Shown here: positions 46,766-60,006 of the stretch, one piece after another
Layout: each line of letters opens with the position of its first letter
Numbering within the stretch: position 1 is the first letter of the stretch
DNA from: an uncultured virus (IMG/VR IMGVR_UViG_2541047494_000006)
Taxonomy: Duplodnaviria > Heunggongvirae > Uroviricota > Caudoviricetes
Direction: 5' to 3' (one strand)
Length of the DNA stretch: 64,000 nucleotides
Virus record (IMG/VR): IMGVR_UViG_2541047494_000006
Notes under the pieces: generated by a model
Told to the model about the DNA's origin: nothing
What the model saw: only the letters and a program-made list of their open reading frames with translations
The model's database searches: none
Translations under genes and position numbers: made by a program

Positions 46766-47654
46766 TTTTATTACCTTCTAAAATGTCTCTTACATCATCT
46801 TTAAATTTAATATCTTTATCGCCATCATTTATCGAATACTTACCTGTAGCTAAACCTAATGCAACAGCAAGTGGTTTTTTCATATGTTTATTTACATAAG
46901 CTTCAAATCCATCTACATCTTCATATTCCTTTAACCTATCCTTTACAGGTTGATTTTTTTCATATATCATCATTTTCATTCCAAATGTATCATCTTGCGA
47001 ATCTCCAGCTTTCTTTTTCTGACTAGGCTTTATTTCAGCATCTTGCATTTTACTTGATACTAATTTAGATAAATCATTAAAAGCTTTCATATCTCCCTTT
47101 TCTCTTGATTTATCTTTTTCTAATTCAATAATACAAATCTCTTCAAACAATTTTCTTTCAGTTAATGACTCTGGTTCATAATATTCTTTATATTCCTTAT
47201 ATTTTCTTTCTAAGATTTTATACTCATAATCATCAAAACCTCTTCCCCATTTTAATTTAATTTCATCATTTATGACTATATTTTTATCATTATTATTTCC
47301 TGTATATATTTCTTTCAATAAATTATCTAAAGATGTCTTTCCCTTATATTTTGAATTTCTATTAATAATTTTCATATATTCATCTATTAATTCATCTTTA
47401 TTTTTTTTATCTGCAAGTTCTTTAGCTAATTTTTCATCAAAATAAACATCAAAGTTGAAACATATATGTTTTAGTGCCTTTACAAGTTCTCCATTGTAAC
47501 ACCCATTTAATAGTAAAAACCTAGCTCTAAAACATTCTTTGCATACTGGAAGTCTTTTATTTAAAGTAAATATTTCACTATGACTTTTCCAAAAATATCT
47601 ATCTGTATATTTTTCTTCACCACAATTCAAACACTTTGTTTTACTAATTGCCAT
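46755..47654 (-). CDS. Putative terminase small subunit with N-terminal Zn finger
   Basis: CxxC..CxxC; overlaps the terL start. Confidence 0.55.
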   Translation of the reverse strand: MAISKTKCLNCGEEKYTDRYFWKSHSEIFTLNKRLPVCKECFRARFLLLNGCYNGELVKALKHICFNFDVYFDEKLAKELADKKNKDELIDEYMKIINRNSKYKGKTSLDNLLKEIYTGNNNDKNIVINDEIKLKWGRGFDDYEYKILERKYKEYKEYYEPESLTERKLFEEICIIELEKDKSREKGDMKAFNDLSKLVSSKMQDAEIKPSQKKKAGDSQDDTFGMKMMIYEKNQPVKDRLKEYEDVDGFEAYVNKHMKKPLAVALGLATGKYSINDGDKDIKFKDDVRDILEGNKNED

Positions 47655-47784
47655 TCATAACATCACCACCATTAAAAAAGACCACTAGAGAATTAAATCT
47701 CTAGTGGTTAATAGGGAGATTCAACTCAATTAAGAGCTGAATTAAATTTACAATATAAACTTAACTCAGCTCTTAATAAATAAC

Positions 47785-49008
47785 TTATAGCTTACTTAAA
47801 TTTATATTGTAAGTACATATTCTCCCACTTTCATTAAATATCATTAATTTTTGCATTGCGTGTGAACTTAATCTTAGATTCTTAGCATAAGAATCCGTTC
47901 CGGAGAAACTTCCATTTACACATATTTCACTTTCTCCATAATTATCTTCCTTACAATTGTGTAGATGAGCCATAAAGATATAATCAGGAATTAATTTTAT
48001 AAGAGAGGTCAGTTTAGGAATTGCTGTAGACATTTTATCTTTGTCTCCATGCACTCCAAAACAAGTATTTCCACATATTTTAGCCACTATTATGTCATTA
48101 TCATATATATTTTCTTGAAATATAACATTGTTTATATTTTTAATTCTTAGCTTTATATATTCATCTATTAATAATGTAAAATTATCTTTATCTAAATTTT
48201 CATCTTTTTTAGGAAGAACTCTATCATGGTTTCCACCTACTGAATAAATAATAATTTTATCAATTTCTTTAGATAACTCATATATAAATTCACTAAGTAT
48301 TTCAGACACCTCTATAATTTGTTCAACTATATTTTCTCTATTTTCTAATCTTATAGAATTATGTATGTATCCAGAAATTAAATCTCCAAGTAACATTACA
48401 TGCAGTCTCTTAACTTTATGTAACTTACTATATTCAATAATTTTATCTTTTAAATATTGTATTCTTATCTTGAATATTTTTGAATTATATCTATTAAATG
48501 CATTAATAGTCTCTAATCCATAATGTATGTCTGAAATTAGCATAATAGCCTCTTGATTTGAAGATTCATAGCATTTGTAACTAGAATCACTTAGAAATGG
48601 CTTATGAAGTGATATATCATCTATTTTATTATTAAATAAATCAATTATATTATCTATTCTTGAATATTCTCTTATTTTCTTATTTACTAATGACCTTTCA
48701 TCAGATAGTTGTACTTTTATCTTTTTTAATTCTAATATTTTCTCATTTATTTTATCAATCTCTTCTTGAGTAGAATTATTCTGTATCTTAGAATTAAGAT
48801 AATCAAAAGCCTCTTTCAACCCATAGGAAACCTTCCTACAATGGTCTGGAGAACATTCTAACCCCAATAGTTCAACTATCTCTCCCCAATCCAAATCTAT
48901 CTCTTTATTAACCTTTGCTAGTCGTATTCTAATCCTATAGTCAACTAGTGACTCATCTTCTTTTTTCTTCAATATGTCTTCCATATTTAATATCTCCCTA
49001 TTTATCAC
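47785..49008 (-). CDS. Calcineurin-like metallophosphoesterase
   Basis: SDIHYG, LGDLI, GNHDR, VHGD and AHLH motifs. Confidence 0.85.
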   Translation of the reverse strand: MINREILNMEDILKKKEDESLVDYRIRIRLAKVNKEIDLDWGEIVELLGLECSPDHCRKVSYGLKEAFDYLNSKIQNNSTQEEIDKINEKILELKKIKVQLSDERSLVNKKIREYSRIDNIIDLFNNKIDDISLHKPFLSDSSYKCYESSNQEAIMLISDIHYGLETINAFNRYNSKIFKIRIQYLKDKIIEYSKLHKVKRLHVMLLGDLISGYIHNSIRLENRENIVEQIIEVSEILSEFIYELSKEIDKIIIYSVGGNHDRVLPKKDENLDKDNFTLLIDEYIKLRIKNINNVIFQENIYDNDIIVAKICGNTCFGVHGDKDKMSTAIPKLTSLIKLIPDYIFMAHLHNCKEDNYGESEICVNGSFSGTDSYAKNLRLSSHAMQKLMIFNESGRICTYNINLSKL

Positions 49009-49060
49009 ATAAATATCATTATCAATGTATTAAGTAAAAAATAAATAGTCCAATATTGAT

Positions 49061-49249
49061 TTATTGGACTATTGTTTCACTTAATCTTATCGTTATGTTT
49101 AAATCTGTATCACCAGTATACTTATCCAAAACATCACTAAGTAATACTTCATGGTCTCCATCTTTCAAATGTTCTATAATTTTATATGTATTATTTTCTT
49201 GTTTTATTATTTCACATTTTTCTAATACTGTTCCTTTATTATTTTTCAT
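49061..49249 (-). CDS. YonK-like small protein
   Basis: 62 aa resembling SPbeta YonK; same synteny with the phosphoesterase and terminase genes. Confidence 0.5.
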   Translation of the reverse strand: MKNNKGTVLEKCEIIKQENNTYKIIEHLKDGDHEVLLSDVLDKYTGDTDLNITIRLSETIVQ

Positions 49250-49298
49250 GCACTTTCACCTTTTTTATAATTTTATTAACTCTACTGGGAATATATTT

Positions 49299-49596
49299 AT
49301 TTGCAAATTAGGCAGCCTTGTAGCTAACAATAGCTAATATAAGTTAACGCATTTAGCATTTATCAAGGATTTTCTATAACTTTTTTATTTTATTTTTACT
49401 ATTTTAATAATTTAATCTTTTATCCTTGAGATTTTATATTTGAATTTTTAACTTTAAGCTTTATATCTATTGTTCTCTTTTATACAGTACAATCGTTTCG
49501 TTTGTATGTACCCATCACTTTTATATAAGCAGTTTGATTTTTAACCCAAAACCAAATGGGAACTTATAATTTATGTTATTCGCCTAACCTGCAAAT
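49299..49596 (-). ncRNA. Putative ~300-nt structured RNA with heptad-periodic A-rich core
   Basis: 15-bp terminal stem ATTTGCAGGTTAGGC / GCCTAATTTGCAAAT; eight in-phase 7-nt AA(A/G)NNNN units at 49462..49407. Confidence 0.65.
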
Positions 49597-49618
49597 TAAA
49601 AAATAGTCCAATTAAGGA

Positions 49619-50236
49619 CTATCTTAAATCTACATCTATAATTGTAAGTGCATTTGATGTACTCAATGCAAAATCAACTTCTTTTTCAAATTCTTCTATT
49701 TCATCCCTTAATTTTTCTATTTTCTCTCTTACTTTTAAAGGGTCTACTAAAGACCATTCTTGTTGTTTTTTATAAAATGAAATAAGTTCTGCTCCATCTT
49801 TACTTTTTTCTTTTTCCTCAAACATTCTGTCTGTATTTTTTTGCACTTCTTCATTTCTACGATTTACTTCAGACATCATACAATCATAGTTACTAACCAT
49901 TTGTCTCAACAAGGATTTATCTAATTCTATACTATTTTTTCTTTTTATTGCTTCTAAAACTGTATAATTTTTATTACTAATTTGAACATTTGTTATAGCA
50001 TTAGAGATATTAATTGCTTTATCTAATGCGTTATAATTATATATTAAATCTTCTATTTGTTGGTATTTACTTGAAACTTCTACATTAAAATCTTCTACAC
50101 TTGTTTTTGTTTCATATACATTTTTATCAGAGCCTTTTTTAGTACCTACAATTTTAAAATTACTAATGCATCTATCTATCTTATCTTCTAATAACTTCTT
50201 TTCTGCTAAAGCTTTATGAACATTATATTTAACCAT
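49619..50236 (-). CDS. Helical coiled-coil protein (DIP1984-like family, tentative)
   Basis: ALAEKKLLEDKI N-terminus and EVDFALSTSNALT C-terminus. Confidence 0.6.
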   Translation of the reverse strand: MVKYNVHKALAEKKLLEDKIDRCISNFKIVGTKKGSDKNVYETKTSVEDFNVEVSSKYQQIEDLIYNYNALDKAINISNAITNVQISNKNYTVLEAIKRKNSIELDKSLLRQMVSNYDCMMSEVNRRNEEVQKNTDRMFEEKEKSKDGAELISFYKKQQEWSLVDPLKVREKIEKLRDEIEEFEKEVDFALSTSNALTIIDVDLR

Positions 50237-50291
50237 AAAAACATCTCCCTTTTAATTAAGATATTATTTAAAAATAACAAACTTTTTTTAT

Positions 50292-50382
50292 TGGAAGAGA
50301 GGAAGGGATTTGAACCCTCGTATCAAATTAATTGACCTAATAGTTTAGCAAACTATCCTCTTTACCACTTGAGTACCTCTCC
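50292..50382 (-). tRNA. tRNA-Ser(GCT)
   Basis: Acceptor GGAGAGG/CCTCTCT, anticodon arm ATAGT-TTGCTAA-ACTAT, long variable arm, T-loop TTCAAAT, encoded CCA. Confidence 0.9.
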
Positions 50383-50397
50383 ATATTTCTATAAATT

Positions 50398-50995
50398 ACA
50401 AACAGCAAGTCGAGTATCCCTACCCTCGACCATGGTCAAGTGCTGTATTTTAAAACTCCGACAGCTCGGATAGCGTGGCTGTTTTTTCACACTAAAGAAT
50501 CTTTTTTAATTGTCCACTATTTGGTAGAACATCACCACTTTTTTATAAATAAATCTACATAAAAATTACTTAGTTCAAAAGACTATTTGATTTATTCACA
50601 ATTTCTTCAGTTTTTTATTAGCCAGGTTCTTCTGACAAACACCTCGACTTGTTTTTGGTTTTTTATTAGCCAGGCACACCAACAAACTCCTCTAATTTTA
50701 AAAAGCAGAAGTAGAATCTGTTACCTCAAATTCTACTTCTTTATTCTTACACCTTTAAGGCATACTAGGGCATTCACCGTATCTATTTCAAGTTATATGT
50801 TGCTCGTCAACCTCGTGTATATTTGCCACGCTATATTCATTTTAGCAGCATCATCATCTTATATTTGTAAAATACCTATTACCAGCCACTAGAGCTTCTC
50901 AAAATGAGCTATCTCTGCTAATTGTATTAATTTTTAGCATATTCTAGGTTTGCTACCATATGTCACCATATGAAAGGGCTTTTAACCCATACGCT
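50398..50995 (-). ncRNA. Putative large structured RNA region between the HU gene and tRNA
   Basis: GC-elevated, no credible ORF; 10-bp long-range pair 50470-50479/50825-50834, several hairpins, tandem pseudoknot units. Confidence 0.5.
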
Positions 50996-50997
50996 CT

Positions 50998-51276
50998 CTA
51001 TATAATTGCATCTTTTAAAGATTTAGCTATTTTTAATTTTGGAACTCTTTTTTCCTCAGTTTTCCAAGGTTTTTTAGTTCCATCTTTAAGAGTTATTTCT
51101 CCTTCTTTACCTTTTTGTATTTTAGTTAGGTATTTAACTCCCATCAACGTCAATTCTTCACCATCTTGTAGTACTTCGTTTCTTTTTTTTTCTATCACAT
51201 CAAGTATCTCTCTTACTCTTATCTGTGATACACCTAATTCTTCTGCTACTTCTTTTAAAAAATCTACTTTTTTCAT
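50998..51276 (-). CDS. hup: HU-family DNA-binding protein
   Basis: MKKVDFLKEVAEELG...VPKLKIAKSLKDAI. Confidence 0.85.
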   Translation of the reverse strand: MKKVDFLKEVAEELGVSQIRVREILDVIEKKRNEVLQDGEELTLMGVKYLTKIQKGKEGEITLKDGTKKPWKTEEKRVPKLKIAKSLKDAII

Positions 51277-51409
51277 ATCTTCTTAATCTCCCTTTTCTTA
51301 TATAATTTTCATTTGATAATAGTAAGGAATAATTTTATTATTTTTATTAACCCCTTACATAAGTAATATGTTTTAAGCGACCCTTTTTTAAACCACTTTT
51401 CCCCACCAG

Positions 51410-52852
51410 CTAATTACAGTTTTTACAATTTGAGCGATATCCCTTTTTACCATTTTTATCAAACCTAGATAGCAACTTAATTTTTCCACATCTGCTACAT
51501 TTTTTATATTTTCCTTTACAAACAGATATATAATAATAATTTTCTTCATAGTTTTTCTCATATGCATCTATTATTTTGTTCACTATTTTATTTATTTGAT
51601 TATTTATTGCTTGAGGAGTTATATTCATTAAATTTGAAATAAACTCTAATGATTTATCTTTTCTATATAAATTTAAAATATCTTTTTGTACTGTGGTAAA
51701 TTCAATTTTAGATATAATATTATTTAAATCCATAACTATACATGTTAAATCATCTTGCAAATCATTACCCTTTTGAATCCTTAAAAGCTCTTTAACATGT
51801 GATTTATCAAACATATCTAAATAGTCCCATTCTGGGCTTCCTGCATCTGCTAATGGTGCTTTCCATATAATTGGTCTCTCTATAGAATTTTTAACATCAG
51901 TCATATCATTTTTTAATGCATTTAAATTTTTCCTAACCATTCTCTTAAGTTTTAACTCTTCTTTACTTAATTGTTTATGTCCTAATTCTTTATATTTAGC
52001 TTTATACCATTCATAAGTATCTGAGTATGTTTTTATAATTGGATATTTTTTAATATCTTTAGGTTTAACTTTTATATCTTTTATTTTTTTATAGTTTTTA
52101 GGTAATTGAAAAAATGCAAAGGAATTGTCTTCTAGGAATCCATCTTTATTAGAAGTGTTTGAATTTATATTTCCACCATTTGCAGGTGCTATTTTATTTA
52201 GAAGTGCTTCTTCCTGACATGCTCTATTAAATAACTCTTTTGAATTGTATATTCTTATTTTAGTTTCCTTAGGTTTATCATCTACTGAGAGTATATAGCT
52301 CCCCATTATTTCTAATGTTTTTGCTATATTAGAAGTAGAATATATACTGTCATCTTTATTTAATATCAACTTAATTTTCGATGTATTATGATGTGTGTAC
52401 TCCCATGTACCATTACTATTACTAAAAGGATTTTTAACATTTATATATTCGATTGGATTAATTTGATTATAGCCACACCAAGTAATGAATCTATTATAAT
52501 CCATAACTACTTCTTCTCCATCAATAGTAACATAATATACACCATCTTTATCTAAAGGACTATCTGATGTTTGCTCAAATATATTTTCCCAAAATTTATC
52601 ATTGAATTGTTTTTTTTCTTGATATTTCACTCTAGTAATAATATTCTCATTTCTCTTTGTAAGAGTATTATAAAATGTATCTATATAATTTCTATTTGAC
52701 TCTTCAAACCACGTGTGTTTTACCCCTAATCGTTCCTCTATGTATTTAATTCTATCTTTGCTATTGTCTATGCTATAATCTAAATTCTTTATGTAATCTT
52801 GTGCAGATTTGCCATCTATTTCTTCATAAAAATTGTTATTATTATATATCAA
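51410..52852 (-). CDS. Putative transcription factor with sigma region-4-like HTH and C-terminal Zn finger
   Basis: SLEFISNLMNITPQAINNQI HTH; CSRC...CKNC. Confidence 0.55.
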   Translation of the reverse strand: MIYNNNNFYEEIDGKSAQDYIKNLDYSIDNSKDRIKYIEERLGVKHTWFEESNRNYIDTFYNTLTKRNENIITRVKYQEKKQFNDKFWENIFEQTSDSPLDKDGVYYVTIDGEEVVMDYNRFITWCGYNQINPIEYINVKNPFSNSNGTWEYTHHNTSKIKLILNKDDSIYSTSNIAKTLEIMGSYILSVDDKPKETKIRIYNSKELFNRACQEEALLNKIAPANGGNINSNTSNKDGFLEDNSFAFFQLPKNYKKIKDIKVKPKDIKKYPIIKTYSDTYEWYKAKYKELGHKQLSKEELKLKRMVRKNLNALKNDMTDVKNSIERPIIWKAPLADAGSPEWDYLDMFDKSHVKELLRIQKGNDLQDDLTCIVMDLNNIISKIEFTTVQKDILNLYRKDKSLEFISNLMNITPQAINNQINKIVNKIIDAYEKNYEENYYYISVCKGKYKKCSRCGKIKLLSRFDKNGKKGYRSNCKNCN

Positions 52853-52854
52853 TA

Positions 52855-53103
52855 TTATACCTCCTTTCCTTGCAATCCATCATCATAATCTGTATCATCA
52901 TAATCCCATAGTTCATCCTTAAAATCCTCCTTATGCCTTTCATTTACAATATCATATGAAGACCTTTTACTCATCTCTGTGTATGTATCTATCATTTGTT
53001 CATATTCCTCATTTAATATTTGATACCTATTTTTATGTACGCCTGTTTTCTCTGATTCATCTAAATCTTCTAAATATATTAATTCTATTTTTTTCTCTTT
53101 CAT
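52855..53103 (-). CDS. Acidic hypothetical protein
   Basis: 82 aa with SD AAGGAG. Confidence 0.55.
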   Translation of the reverse strand: MKEKKIELIYLEDLDESEKTGVHKNRYQILNEEYEQMIDTYTEMSKRSSYDIVNERHKEDFKDELWDYDDTDYDDGLQGKEV

Positions 53104-59431: not shown

Positions 59432-59660
59432 ATAAAAAATCTACTCAAAAAAATACTTGACAACTCGTGACGAGTCGATTGTAATTAAATCATAAAATAA
59501 AATTTTTTACAAAATGACTAGTAACGAGTCGGTAAAAAGGGAGGATATAAAATGCTAAATATATACATAACTAATTTAGGGAAATATGATTGAGATGCCT
59601 TTTATATAGTTCTCTAATATGGTATTATTATTCTATAATAATAATGTTGGAGGGGACAAA

Positions 59661-59855
59661 ATGAATTTAGAGAGACTAAAAGAGTTAAGGTTAGAAAGAG
59701 GATACAGTCAACAACAATTTGCAACTTATATTGGATTGTCTACTTCTACATATACAGATAAAGAAGCAGGGAAAACAAAATTCAAGGTTGAAGAATTAGA
59801 GAAAATATTAAAATTTCTAAATCTTGACCCTTTGGAATTGCTTGACTTAGATTAA
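59661..59855 (+). CDS. XRE/Cro-like HTH protein
   Basis: MNLERLKELRLERGYSQQQFATYIGLS; SD GGAGGGG. Confidence 0.85.
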   Translation: MNLERLKELRLERGYSQQQFATYIGLSTSTYTDKEAGKTKFKVEELEKILKFLNLDPLELLDLD

Positions 59856-60006
59856 AAAGTCAACTTTTCTAAATAATAAAACCGAAAAATCGTTGACAAT
59901 ATCCGTTTTGAGATTTATAATTAAAATATCAAATAAAAAATTTAAAAAACAAAACCGAAAAATCGTTTTAAAAAATCGTTTTATAATAAAAAAGGAGGAT
60001 ATAAAA

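Follow-up and report, generated by a model that had tools for sequence, protein, structure and literature searches.

What occupies the non-coding gap behind a small phage gene, and does the content of this gap belong to the protein encoded in front of it? The question is raised by the minus strand of an uncultured virus (IMG/VR record IMGVR_UViG_2541047494_000006), of which the whole analyzed stretch of 64,000 nt is called the window here. An open reading frame (ORF) of 205 amino acids (49619..50236, minus strand), a homolog of the phage T5 gene T5.085 that codes for a helical protein of family phrog_1491, is followed by an intergenic gap of 369 nt. Most of this gap is occupied by a segment of 298 nt (49299..49596, minus strand) that ends 50 nt short of the next start codon. 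An initial annotation, made from the letters of the window, had proposed that this segment is a stem-closed RNA with an A-rich core of 7-nt period that acts together with the protein. Comparative data from phages and bacterial chromosomes indicate that the protein gene and a structured RNA form a conserved pair that has apparently not been described before.

Within the window, the parts of the proposed element were recovered as described. The ORF checks out, and a pattern scan placed a terminator-like hairpin with a U run over its TAG stop codon (49625-49600, minus strand), between ORF and RNA. The closing stem, termed P1 in the following, is formed by a 5′ arm (49582..49596) and a 3′ arm (49299..49313), with 13 Watson–Crick and two G·U pairs over 15 bp, and the smaller stem of CCTTG (49368-49364) with CAAGG (49320-49316) was confirmed as well. 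Eight in-phase heptads are indeed present from 49462 to 49407, but only the first seven (49414..49462) are conserved in the family, so that the eighth unit (49407-49413) falls outside the conserved array.

By itself, the closing stem is not rare in the window: the 64 kb contain 84 comparable inverted repeats (15 nt, at least 13 of them matching, 20–400 nt apart), 11 with at least five G/C. The heptads stand out more clearly, as a run of eight in-phase AA[AG] units was reached in none of 3000 dinucleotide shuffles, neither at period 7 nor when all periods from 4 to 12 were allowed. No longer run of this kind occurs on either strand of the window, and the next one has six units. The Fourier power at period 7.0 over the whole region was not significant (P 0.52), with the maximum taken over all periods P was 0.44 (intergenic region) and 0.054 (core), and Tandem Repeats Finder reported only weak arrays of period 8 and 14 (scores 39 and 42). 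The segment folds with an energy of z = −2.93, a stability reached by none of 100 shuffles, and the first CAAGG of the RNA is paired wrongly in the minimum-free-energy structure. An Rfam cmscan of positions 47000-53000 at E ≤ 1 gave no family match over the element and returned only the tRNA, an sbrA-like match over the terminator (22 bits) and a plastid artefact.

The common inverted repeats, the weak arrays and the insignificant whole-region periodicity could suggest that the element arose by chance in AT-rich intergenic DNA or is what remains of a microsatellite of 7 or 14 nt. Such an origin is nevertheless refuted by the conservation across phyla, the covariation, the ungapped heptads, the co-occurrence with the protein gene and the stem controls described below, and is given practically no weight. 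The decisive support for the element is comparative rather than contained in the window. Close relatives are of little help here. The 1.6 kb around the element are 100% identical to Clostridioides phage AR1086-1 and 96% identical to phiCD211 and phiCDIF1296T, which are 130-kb C. difficile phage-plasmids; the window evidently stems from a phiCD211-type C. difficile phage. Since the five close relatives of this type are 96% identical over the element, they give no information on covariation.

The protein was followed into more distant genomes. By tblastn, it was found in 738 of 50,697 phage records (588 with a coverage of at least 80%), with hosts that include Salmonella, Escherichia, Pseudomonas, Vibrio, Bacillus, Klebsiella, Erwinia and Lactococcus, and with phage T5 among the matches. 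In phages My1, 949, D-1873 and Av-05, the first four annotated contexts inspected, the gene is followed by a gap without annotation of 396 to 1233 nt, and each of these gaps holds an in-phase AAAGNUN heptad array. In D-1873, the same long non-coding stretch also carries, approximately 430 nt downstream of the new RNA and on the plus strand, a match to the drum RNA (RF02958; L011 4353-4460) that, at 47.7 bits, exceeds the gathering score of 43. Searching IMG/VR with the protein alignment yielded 341 stretches that encode a relative, of which the best 80 were kept as 78 loci, comprising 21 near-identical C. difficile phage loci and 57 distant loci with 31–41% identity. When runs of eight heptads were scored along each locus of approximately 5.6 kb, the maximum fell 133–277 nt past the end of the gene match in 50 of the 57 distant cases.

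For the closing stem, a constrained search was used that demands a GAA[AT] flank on the 5′ side and a GC[TA] flank on the 3′ side. Ten out of ten pairs were formed in 55 of the 57 distant loci and nine in a further one (L083), while the RNA of the last locus (L046) was detected by an unconstrained search. The RNA consequently lies 3′ of the protein gene in all 57 (56 constrained and L046). At control sites, a complete ten-pair stem was obtained in 3 of 57 loci upstream, in 2 on the reverse strand and in 7 at 900 nt downstream; stems that reach at least 12 bp numbered 28 at the true site and zero in each of the three controls. RNA lengths range from 281 to 464 nt, and the 5′ ends fall anywhere from 25 nt ahead of the stop codon to 77 nt past it. 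Bacterial genomes gave a similar picture, with 179 stretches that encode a relative. Among the 80 that were kept, 71 loci passed a strict RNA heuristic, and of the nine that failed, two (L146 and L148) are contigs that end early and seven were below the thresholds.

Independent confirmation came from a covariance model (R1) of 155 positions, which was built from 47 loci with the window and the named phages excluded. In the window, R1 matched 49312-49465 on the minus strand over all of its positions (1-155 of 155) with 74.1 bits and an E value of 2.8e-13. This match is the only significant one, as the next reached 15.1 bits (E 0.21). The named phages each gave one match, located beside the protein gene, with 77.9 bits for D-1873, 76.1 for My1, 71.8 for phiCD211, 56.8 for T5, 51.8 for Av-05 and 46.0 for 949. 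The window itself shows the features that define the family, a closing stem flanked by CGAAAAC-like and GGCUG motifs and located 3′ of the protein gene. The initial annotation had named homologs without a downstream stem or without 7-nt periodicity as evidence that would speak against the pair. Instead, phages of Proteobacteria and Firmicutes as well as bacterial chromosomes have retained the heptad array together with both stems, the covarying closing one and the 3′ CCNNG/CNNGG stem.

An alignment of 48 distinct RNAs by MAFFT, with the window RNA as the first and 47 RNAs from other phages aligned to it end to end, revealed a shared plan. In the 5′ part, P1 is followed by CGAAAAC, variable hairpins, (C)UGU, the seven heptads and a U-rich spacer; in the 3′ part, further A-A units, AAAAUCC, a stem with an inner hairpin domain and its return, GGCUG and finally the second arm of P1 are found. 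The window follows this plan with GAAUAAC in place of CGAAAAC directly 3′ of the first P1 arm (49575..49581), with the AAAAUCC motif of invariant or near-invariant columns (49367..49373) leading into CCUUG (49364-49368), and with CAAGG (49316-49320) overlapping GGCUG (49313-49317) on the returning side (49313..49320), all on the minus strand. RNAalifold recovered P1 and the 3′ stem with compensatory changes in 17 of 18 pairs. One pair of columns, for example, is occupied by AU 19 times, UA 18 times, GC and CG five times each and GU once, and is broken in no sequence. The covariation of the closing stem across homologs, which had been suggested as a check, is hence borne out.

The outer 3′ stem was also assessed in a second alignment of 47 3′ halves, in which it is 97.3% paired with compensatory changes in four of five pairs. 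Its covariation score of 0.495 compares with 0.171 ± 0.016 in shuffles, none of 500 reaching the same value, and with 0.117–0.194 when the partner strand was slid. Helices 2 and 3 of the 3′ domain are probably real, with 59.6% and 74.9% of cells paired in the MAFFT alignment, which is poor in this part. A further helix between CGAAAAC and the segment before AAAAUCC is possible; the mean run was 4.78 for own and 4.56 for mismatched partners, and runs of at least six occurred in 28% and 19%, respectively, the two motifs themselves being conserved.

The strand on which the folding occurs can be read from P1. Among 120 distinct RNAs, its non-canonical positions comprised 115 G·U, 15 A·C and 81 others, with P1 chosen by the Watson–Crick count only but with starting coordinates from a G·U-tolerant search. 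This excess of G·U over A·C means that the gene-sense strand folds, which fits a transcript and not duplex DNA. The result bears on the view that the segment is a cis-acting or DNA-level element, such as a 3′ untranslated region that controls its gene, a promoter or leader for the 62-amino-acid gene downstream, or a set of iterons or an origin. Its position would suit such a role, as the segment takes up the space between two neighboring genes and stops 50 nt short of the downstream start codon, and periodic A-rich DNA can serve as a protein-binding array. However, the strand-specific G·U pairs and the compensatory changes indicate a folded transcript, the downstream gene varies by lineage (tRNAs, endolysin, topoisomerase or housekeeping genes), and in relatives without the element, the 62-amino-acid gene still has an upstream region of its own. 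A pattern scan, moreover, found no sigma-70-like promoter on the minus strand within the segment. We therefore regard an action in cis or at the DNA level as very improbable.

The most regular part of the RNA is the heptad array. All 49 columns of the seven heptads are ungapped in 48 of 48 aligned RNAs, and the family consensus reads A-A-R-G-Y-U-Y. Position 1 is A in 98% of the units, position 2 is A in 86%, position 3 is A in 63% (purine in 82%) and position 4 is G in 59%, followed by U (50%) or C (26%) at position 5, U (94%) at position 6 and C (49%) or U (39%) at position 7. The heptads had been described as keeping phase but not sequence. The phase is indeed kept, but so are positions 1, 2 and 6 (A, A and U), at 86–98%. 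Past the U-rich spacer, about four looser A-A units follow with a spacing of 6–8 nt. Pairing of the heptads with each other, in a hairpin or a dimer, was considered and rejected, as complementarity between heptads did not exceed shuffles over all 49 pairs (maximum z 1.6, position 4 against 5). The lack of a pairing signal makes it most likely that the array is single-stranded.

Read from position 5 onward, the heptad becomes Y-U-Y-A-A-R-G. Anticodon loops follow the rule Y32, U33 and R37, and by analogy the shifted heptad would obey this rule with an anticodon YAA, which may serve as a lead. Genes for tRNA-Leu(UAA or CAA) follow the RNA in 13 of 36 tRNA-bearing loci, a number to be read against the background frequency of such tRNAs in phage clusters.

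The linkage between RNA and protein gene was also evident from their gains and losses. In C. difficile phages ES-S-0173-01 and pCD1602_4, the genes for HU and the 62-amino-acid protein are kept without the tRNA, the 205-amino-acid gene and the element between them; RNA and protein are absent from both entire records, and R1 is silent at their loci. By this comparison, the tRNA, the 205-amino-acid gene and the element behave as an insertable module. The slot from HU to the 62-amino-acid gene (window 49300-50990; L003 3350-3506; L004 3265-4295) is a variable site in phiCD211-type phages. It contains tRNA-Ser, protein gene and RNA in the window, nothing in ES-S-0173-01 and a 260-amino-acid gene in pCD1602_4, and a tRNA-Met is added in LIBA2945. 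A miniature inverted-repeat transposable element (MITE) or another multi-copy repeat was rejected, as the element occupies one place per phage record and R1 matches once per genome. A packaging or terminal repeat appears unlikely, with the element lying approximately 6.9–7.2 kb into the phiCD211 record.

Outside of phages, 49 genomes from the genus of one Bacillus were compared. Both RNA and protein gene were present in 15 of them, adjacent and on the same strand in each case, and both were missing in 33. No genome had the protein alone, and one (G023) had the RNA only. In this genome, the last heptads and the 3′ domain of the RNA are left as a truncated remnant, joined to the end of an amino-acid permease gene (L172 2574-2730, including the 3′ arm of P1), at a place where sister genomes hold the intact pair; it is to all appearances a deletion scar. 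One complete Bacillus chromosome carries the pair between the same permease gene, accompanied by a homocysteine S-methyltransferase gene, and genes for a subtilase and a phosphotransferase system (PTS), with no phage genes within 8 kb. The pair can accordingly exist as a lone two-part island. At the level of genome sequence, these comparisons show that the structured-RNA gene and the protein gene are inherited, lost and moved together.

A patchy island of approximately 1 kb and two parts, found in phages and also alone among the housekeeping genes of Bacillus chromosomes, is reminiscent of a toxin–antitoxin or abortive-infection pair. In analogy to type III systems, the protein would be harmful and the repeat RNA would sequester several protomers. 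In the type III systems ToxIN, CptIN and TenpIN, RNA repeats of approximately 34–45 nt lie upstream of the toxin gene with a terminator in between, and one protomer is bound per repeat. A repetitive RNA that adjoins a small protein gene and a patchy occurrence in phages and chromosomes (for type III, also in plasmids) are common to both, and the genome with the truncated RNA remnant could be cited in favor. That genome is, however, uninformative on this point, because the protein was lost ahead of the RNA, part of which is still present, and this order is the safe one. In contrast to type III systems, all loci examined have the RNA downstream of the gene, with units of 7 nt embedded in a stem-closed fold of 300–450 nt, and a helical bundle takes the place of a ToxN/AbiQ-type endoribonuclease. 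PADLOC 2.0 assigned no family to the window, T5 and 62-amino-acid proteins, and the protein sequence showed no toxin-like domain or hydrophobic segment; only the Bacillus copy gave a single weak ThsB-like match (E 0.0041). A toxin–antitoxin function is thus considered improbable.

With regard to its transcription, the element is frequently accompanied by tRNA genes. In 36 of the 52 related loci scanned, tRNA genes were found within ±2.5 kb and always on the same strand, and in six loci (L048, L059, L062, L066, L080 and L012) the next tRNA starts only 2–10 nt past the 3′ end of the RNA. This adjacency suggests that the RNA matures from a multi-gene precursor of stable RNAs by means of tRNA-processing enzymes. 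The terminator hairpin of the window is not a property of the family. Many RNAs begin 5–25 nt past the stop codon and one begins 25 nt before it, and most relatives have no room for a terminator between ORF and RNA. In figure legends of PMC13056530, discrete phage-associated RNA bands are mentioned for total RNA of T5-infected cells, without their sizes, which is a hint at most. RNA-library contigs from two studies contain 0.78 and 0.64 of the sampled words of window 48900-50500, shares that are not position-specific and carry no weight as evidence of expression.

The protein belongs to a large and little-described family. The phrog_1491 profile matched residues 1-203 with an E value of 6.2e-71, and at 50% identity the family comprises 3410 clusters at E ≤ 1e-3 and 1599 at E ≤ 1e-30, nearly all of 204–228 amino acids. 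Despite this size, there is no Pfam model, and neither Pfam nor NCBIfam returned a family for the window protein and 27 relatives, even at E values up to 1 and 5. The phrog family is labelled "tail fiber protein", a name that RefSeq also gives to T5.085 (NC_005859; L175 1506-2144). This label is doubtful, because it fits neither the surroundings of T5.085, with RNase H, a peptidase/exonuclease, endolysin and tRNA genes close by, nor the housekeeping genes around the Bacillus pair. In another T5 record (AY692264), an opposite-strand ORF of 265 amino acids (T5p083; L091 2477-3274) is annotated across the gene; it is probably a mis-call, since the gene beneath is conserved in 738 phage records. 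Both annotations are candidates for correction. A protein of 474 amino acids (P0166) is a double-length member, of which three stretches match the profile, and possibly represents a tandem fusion of two copies.

An AlphaFold2 model with a predicted local distance difference test (pLDDT) of 89.2 describes the protein as an elongated helical bundle with short strands at the ends. Invariant residues are an N-terminal H-K-A-L-x-E-L-K and two S-N-A-x-T motifs ahead of the strands, and the isoelectric point of 4.9–6.5 across the family is mildly acidic. The protein had been tentatively called DIP1984-like. Structural comparison lends this weak support, as the uncharacterized C. diphtheriae protein 3kdq, which we take to be DIP1984 although the entry title does not say so, was the top match in the PDB by Foldseek (E 6e-3, TM 0.39/0.49) and also by VIA-align (Z 10.0, the next being 8.3, with 151 of 152 residues aligned, the Z being below the caution level of the tool for helical bundles). 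A profile alignment (E 0.096) pointed to a common motif around (S/T)-N-(A/S)-v-T … T-x-A-(E/D)-A. However, no Pfam or NCBIfam sequence model supports the assignment, and 3kdq has 15% identity at a root-mean-square deviation of 8.1 Å and is shorter by approximately 50 residues. A distant relationship to 3kdq is probable and explains no function. The neighbors in BFVD and the ESM Atlas are unnamed viral proteins; weak BFVD matches also include giant-virus proteins of approximately 560 amino acids from Mimiviridae sp. ChoanoV1 (E 6.6e-3) and Yasminevirus (E 4.4e-2).

How, then, might the two parts work together? The reading we favor, and to which we give roughly even chances, is that the RNA is the partner of the protein in a ribonucleoprotein particle (RNP) with one protomer per heptad, arranged as a ring of seven protomers or as an arc limited by the RNA as a ruler. 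The RNA would be excised from a transcript that also bears the protein gene and the neighboring tRNAs and would then serve as a partner of fixed stoichiometry. Each of the seven unpaired, equal and conserved units would dock one protomer, resulting in a particle of fixed size, with recognition by the conserved tip of the helical bundle, that is, the two S-N-A-x-T motifs and the N-terminal H-K-A-L-x-E-L-K. It is attractive, if speculative, to set the two conserved patches per heptad (A1-A2 and U6) one to one against the two S-N-A-x-T motifs per protomer. The location of the pair in early and tRNA regions of large phages and on a lone island in Bacillus favors a role in phage–host conflict or RNA metabolism over one in virion structure.

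Short motifs at fixed spacing on unpaired RNA are known from TRAP, which reads 11 (G/U)AG repeats, and HutP, which reads UAG every 7 nt, the number of motifs matching the number of subunits. The sites of these proteins lie in cis-acting mRNA leaders and are bound by β-rich rings, whereas a separate folded RNA and an all-helical protein are found here. Another precedent, Ro60 (Rsr) with its Y RNAs, occurs in bacteria and phages; there, too, the protein gene has a non-coding RNA as its neighbor, the two ends of which form a long stem. Unlike Ro60, the 205-amino-acid protein has no TROVE or vWA domain, and unlike in Y RNAs, neither Rfam nor ARAGORN detected a tRNA-like module in the new RNA.

Several observations weigh against an RNP with seven protomers. 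An acidic protein is atypical of a general RNA binder, and the terminator-like hairpin of the window means that gene and RNA could be co-transcribed only by read-through. The looser A-A units beyond the strict heptads may mean that seven undercounts the sites. Furthermore, genomic linkage would also be expected if the RNA regulated the gene, or if the role of the protein were limited to processing or chaperoning the RNA.

The latter point leads to the alternative that the RNA itself is active without stable binding to the neighboring protein, either as a sponge or decoy with seven sites for a host factor or as an RNA-only assembly, with the protein as a helper in processing, folding or turnover. 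In favor of this view are a conservation of the RNA that at least equals that of the protein, its rich fold with covarying stems, and the acidity of the protein. By analogy, the Y-U-Y-A-A-R-G reading, with its anticodon-loop pattern and a resemblance to the preferences of RNase E and RNase Y, offers leads. ROOL and GOLLD, large ornate RNAs of phages and prophages, are likewise located near tRNA genes. They share with the new RNA the character of large structured non-coding RNAs of phages that often lie beside tRNA genes, but the new RNA is smaller (281–464 nt), is strictly coupled to one protein gene and contains the heptad array. Large ornate phage RNAs of the ROOL and GOLLD type are the subject of 10.1101/2024.12.08.627333. 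Against an RNA that acts alone stand the strict co-occurrence and co-loss with the protein and the adjacency, order and orientation that are fixed across very distant hosts, and no candidate host factor is common to all of these hosts. We consider this alternative unlikely, yet worth keeping in mind next to the RNP of RNA and protein.

The pair appears to be new. Rfam 15 gave no match at E ≤ 1 over the element for five representatives (window, My1, 949, D-1873 and Av-05). Among 60 listed of 440 T5-like records with at least 90% identity to the T5 version, none carried an RNA annotation beneath it; most had no feature under the match, and the rest had hypothetical proteins or a promoter. A literature search on DIP1984, T5.085, non-coding RNA of T5 and phage heptad RNAs returned no description, within a coverage that leaves out most subscription journals, so that an earlier description is possible. 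T5 has been studied for seventy years, and still a covarying RNA of approximately 350 nt behind T5.085, in the gap at NC_005859 43142-43504, is without RNA annotation in the records listed. A pair that spans phages of Enterobacteria, Pseudomonas, Vibrio, Bacillus, Lactococcus and Clostridia as well as bacterial chromosomes is either ancient or highly mobile, and presumably useful.

Exactly seven sites of identical length on one RNA are an unusual design. Tentatively, and with more doubt than confidence, we propose a new RNP class in which the RNA would be a seven-step ruler that assembles seven DIP1984-like helical proteins, encoded by T5 and hundreds of large phages and domesticated as a lone island in some Firmicutes. 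If this holds, the single-stranded Y-U-Y-A-A-R-G heptads may mimic tRNA anticodon loops or nuclease sites. Such mimicry would make the particle a decoy or regulator in the struggle of phage and host over tRNAs and RNA decay.

The surroundings of the pair in the window complete the description of the locus. All local genes lie on the minus strand, beginning with a sigma-like gene (51410-52852) and the HU gene (50998-51276), which is separated from tRNA-Ser(GCU) by approximately 600 nt without a listed minus-strand ORF of at least 40 amino acids (50383-50997). The tRNA (50292..50382), detected by ARAGORN and matched by the Rfam tRNA model with 57 bits, is located 55 nt upstream of the protein gene. 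Downstream of the 369-nt gap follow the 62-amino-acid ORF (49061-49249), which has its own terminator and belongs to phrog_21503 (E 1.5e-43), and beyond it a phosphoesterase/exonuclease gene and the terminase genes. The 62-amino-acid ORF is a separate unit, as it is kept in relatives without the protein–RNA module. Two hairpins (49625-49600 and 49073-49044) with the common stem ATAGTCC/GGACTAT bracket this ORF.

At some distance, on the plus strand, three ACCGAAAAATCGTT-like motif copies (59870-59985) separate a small helix-turn-helix-like ORF (59619-59855) from the gene that follows, and are probably operator sites. The second-longest period-7 run of the window, with six units, coincides with this site, and the R1 noise match of 15 bits falls within the adjoining ORF (59774-59830).

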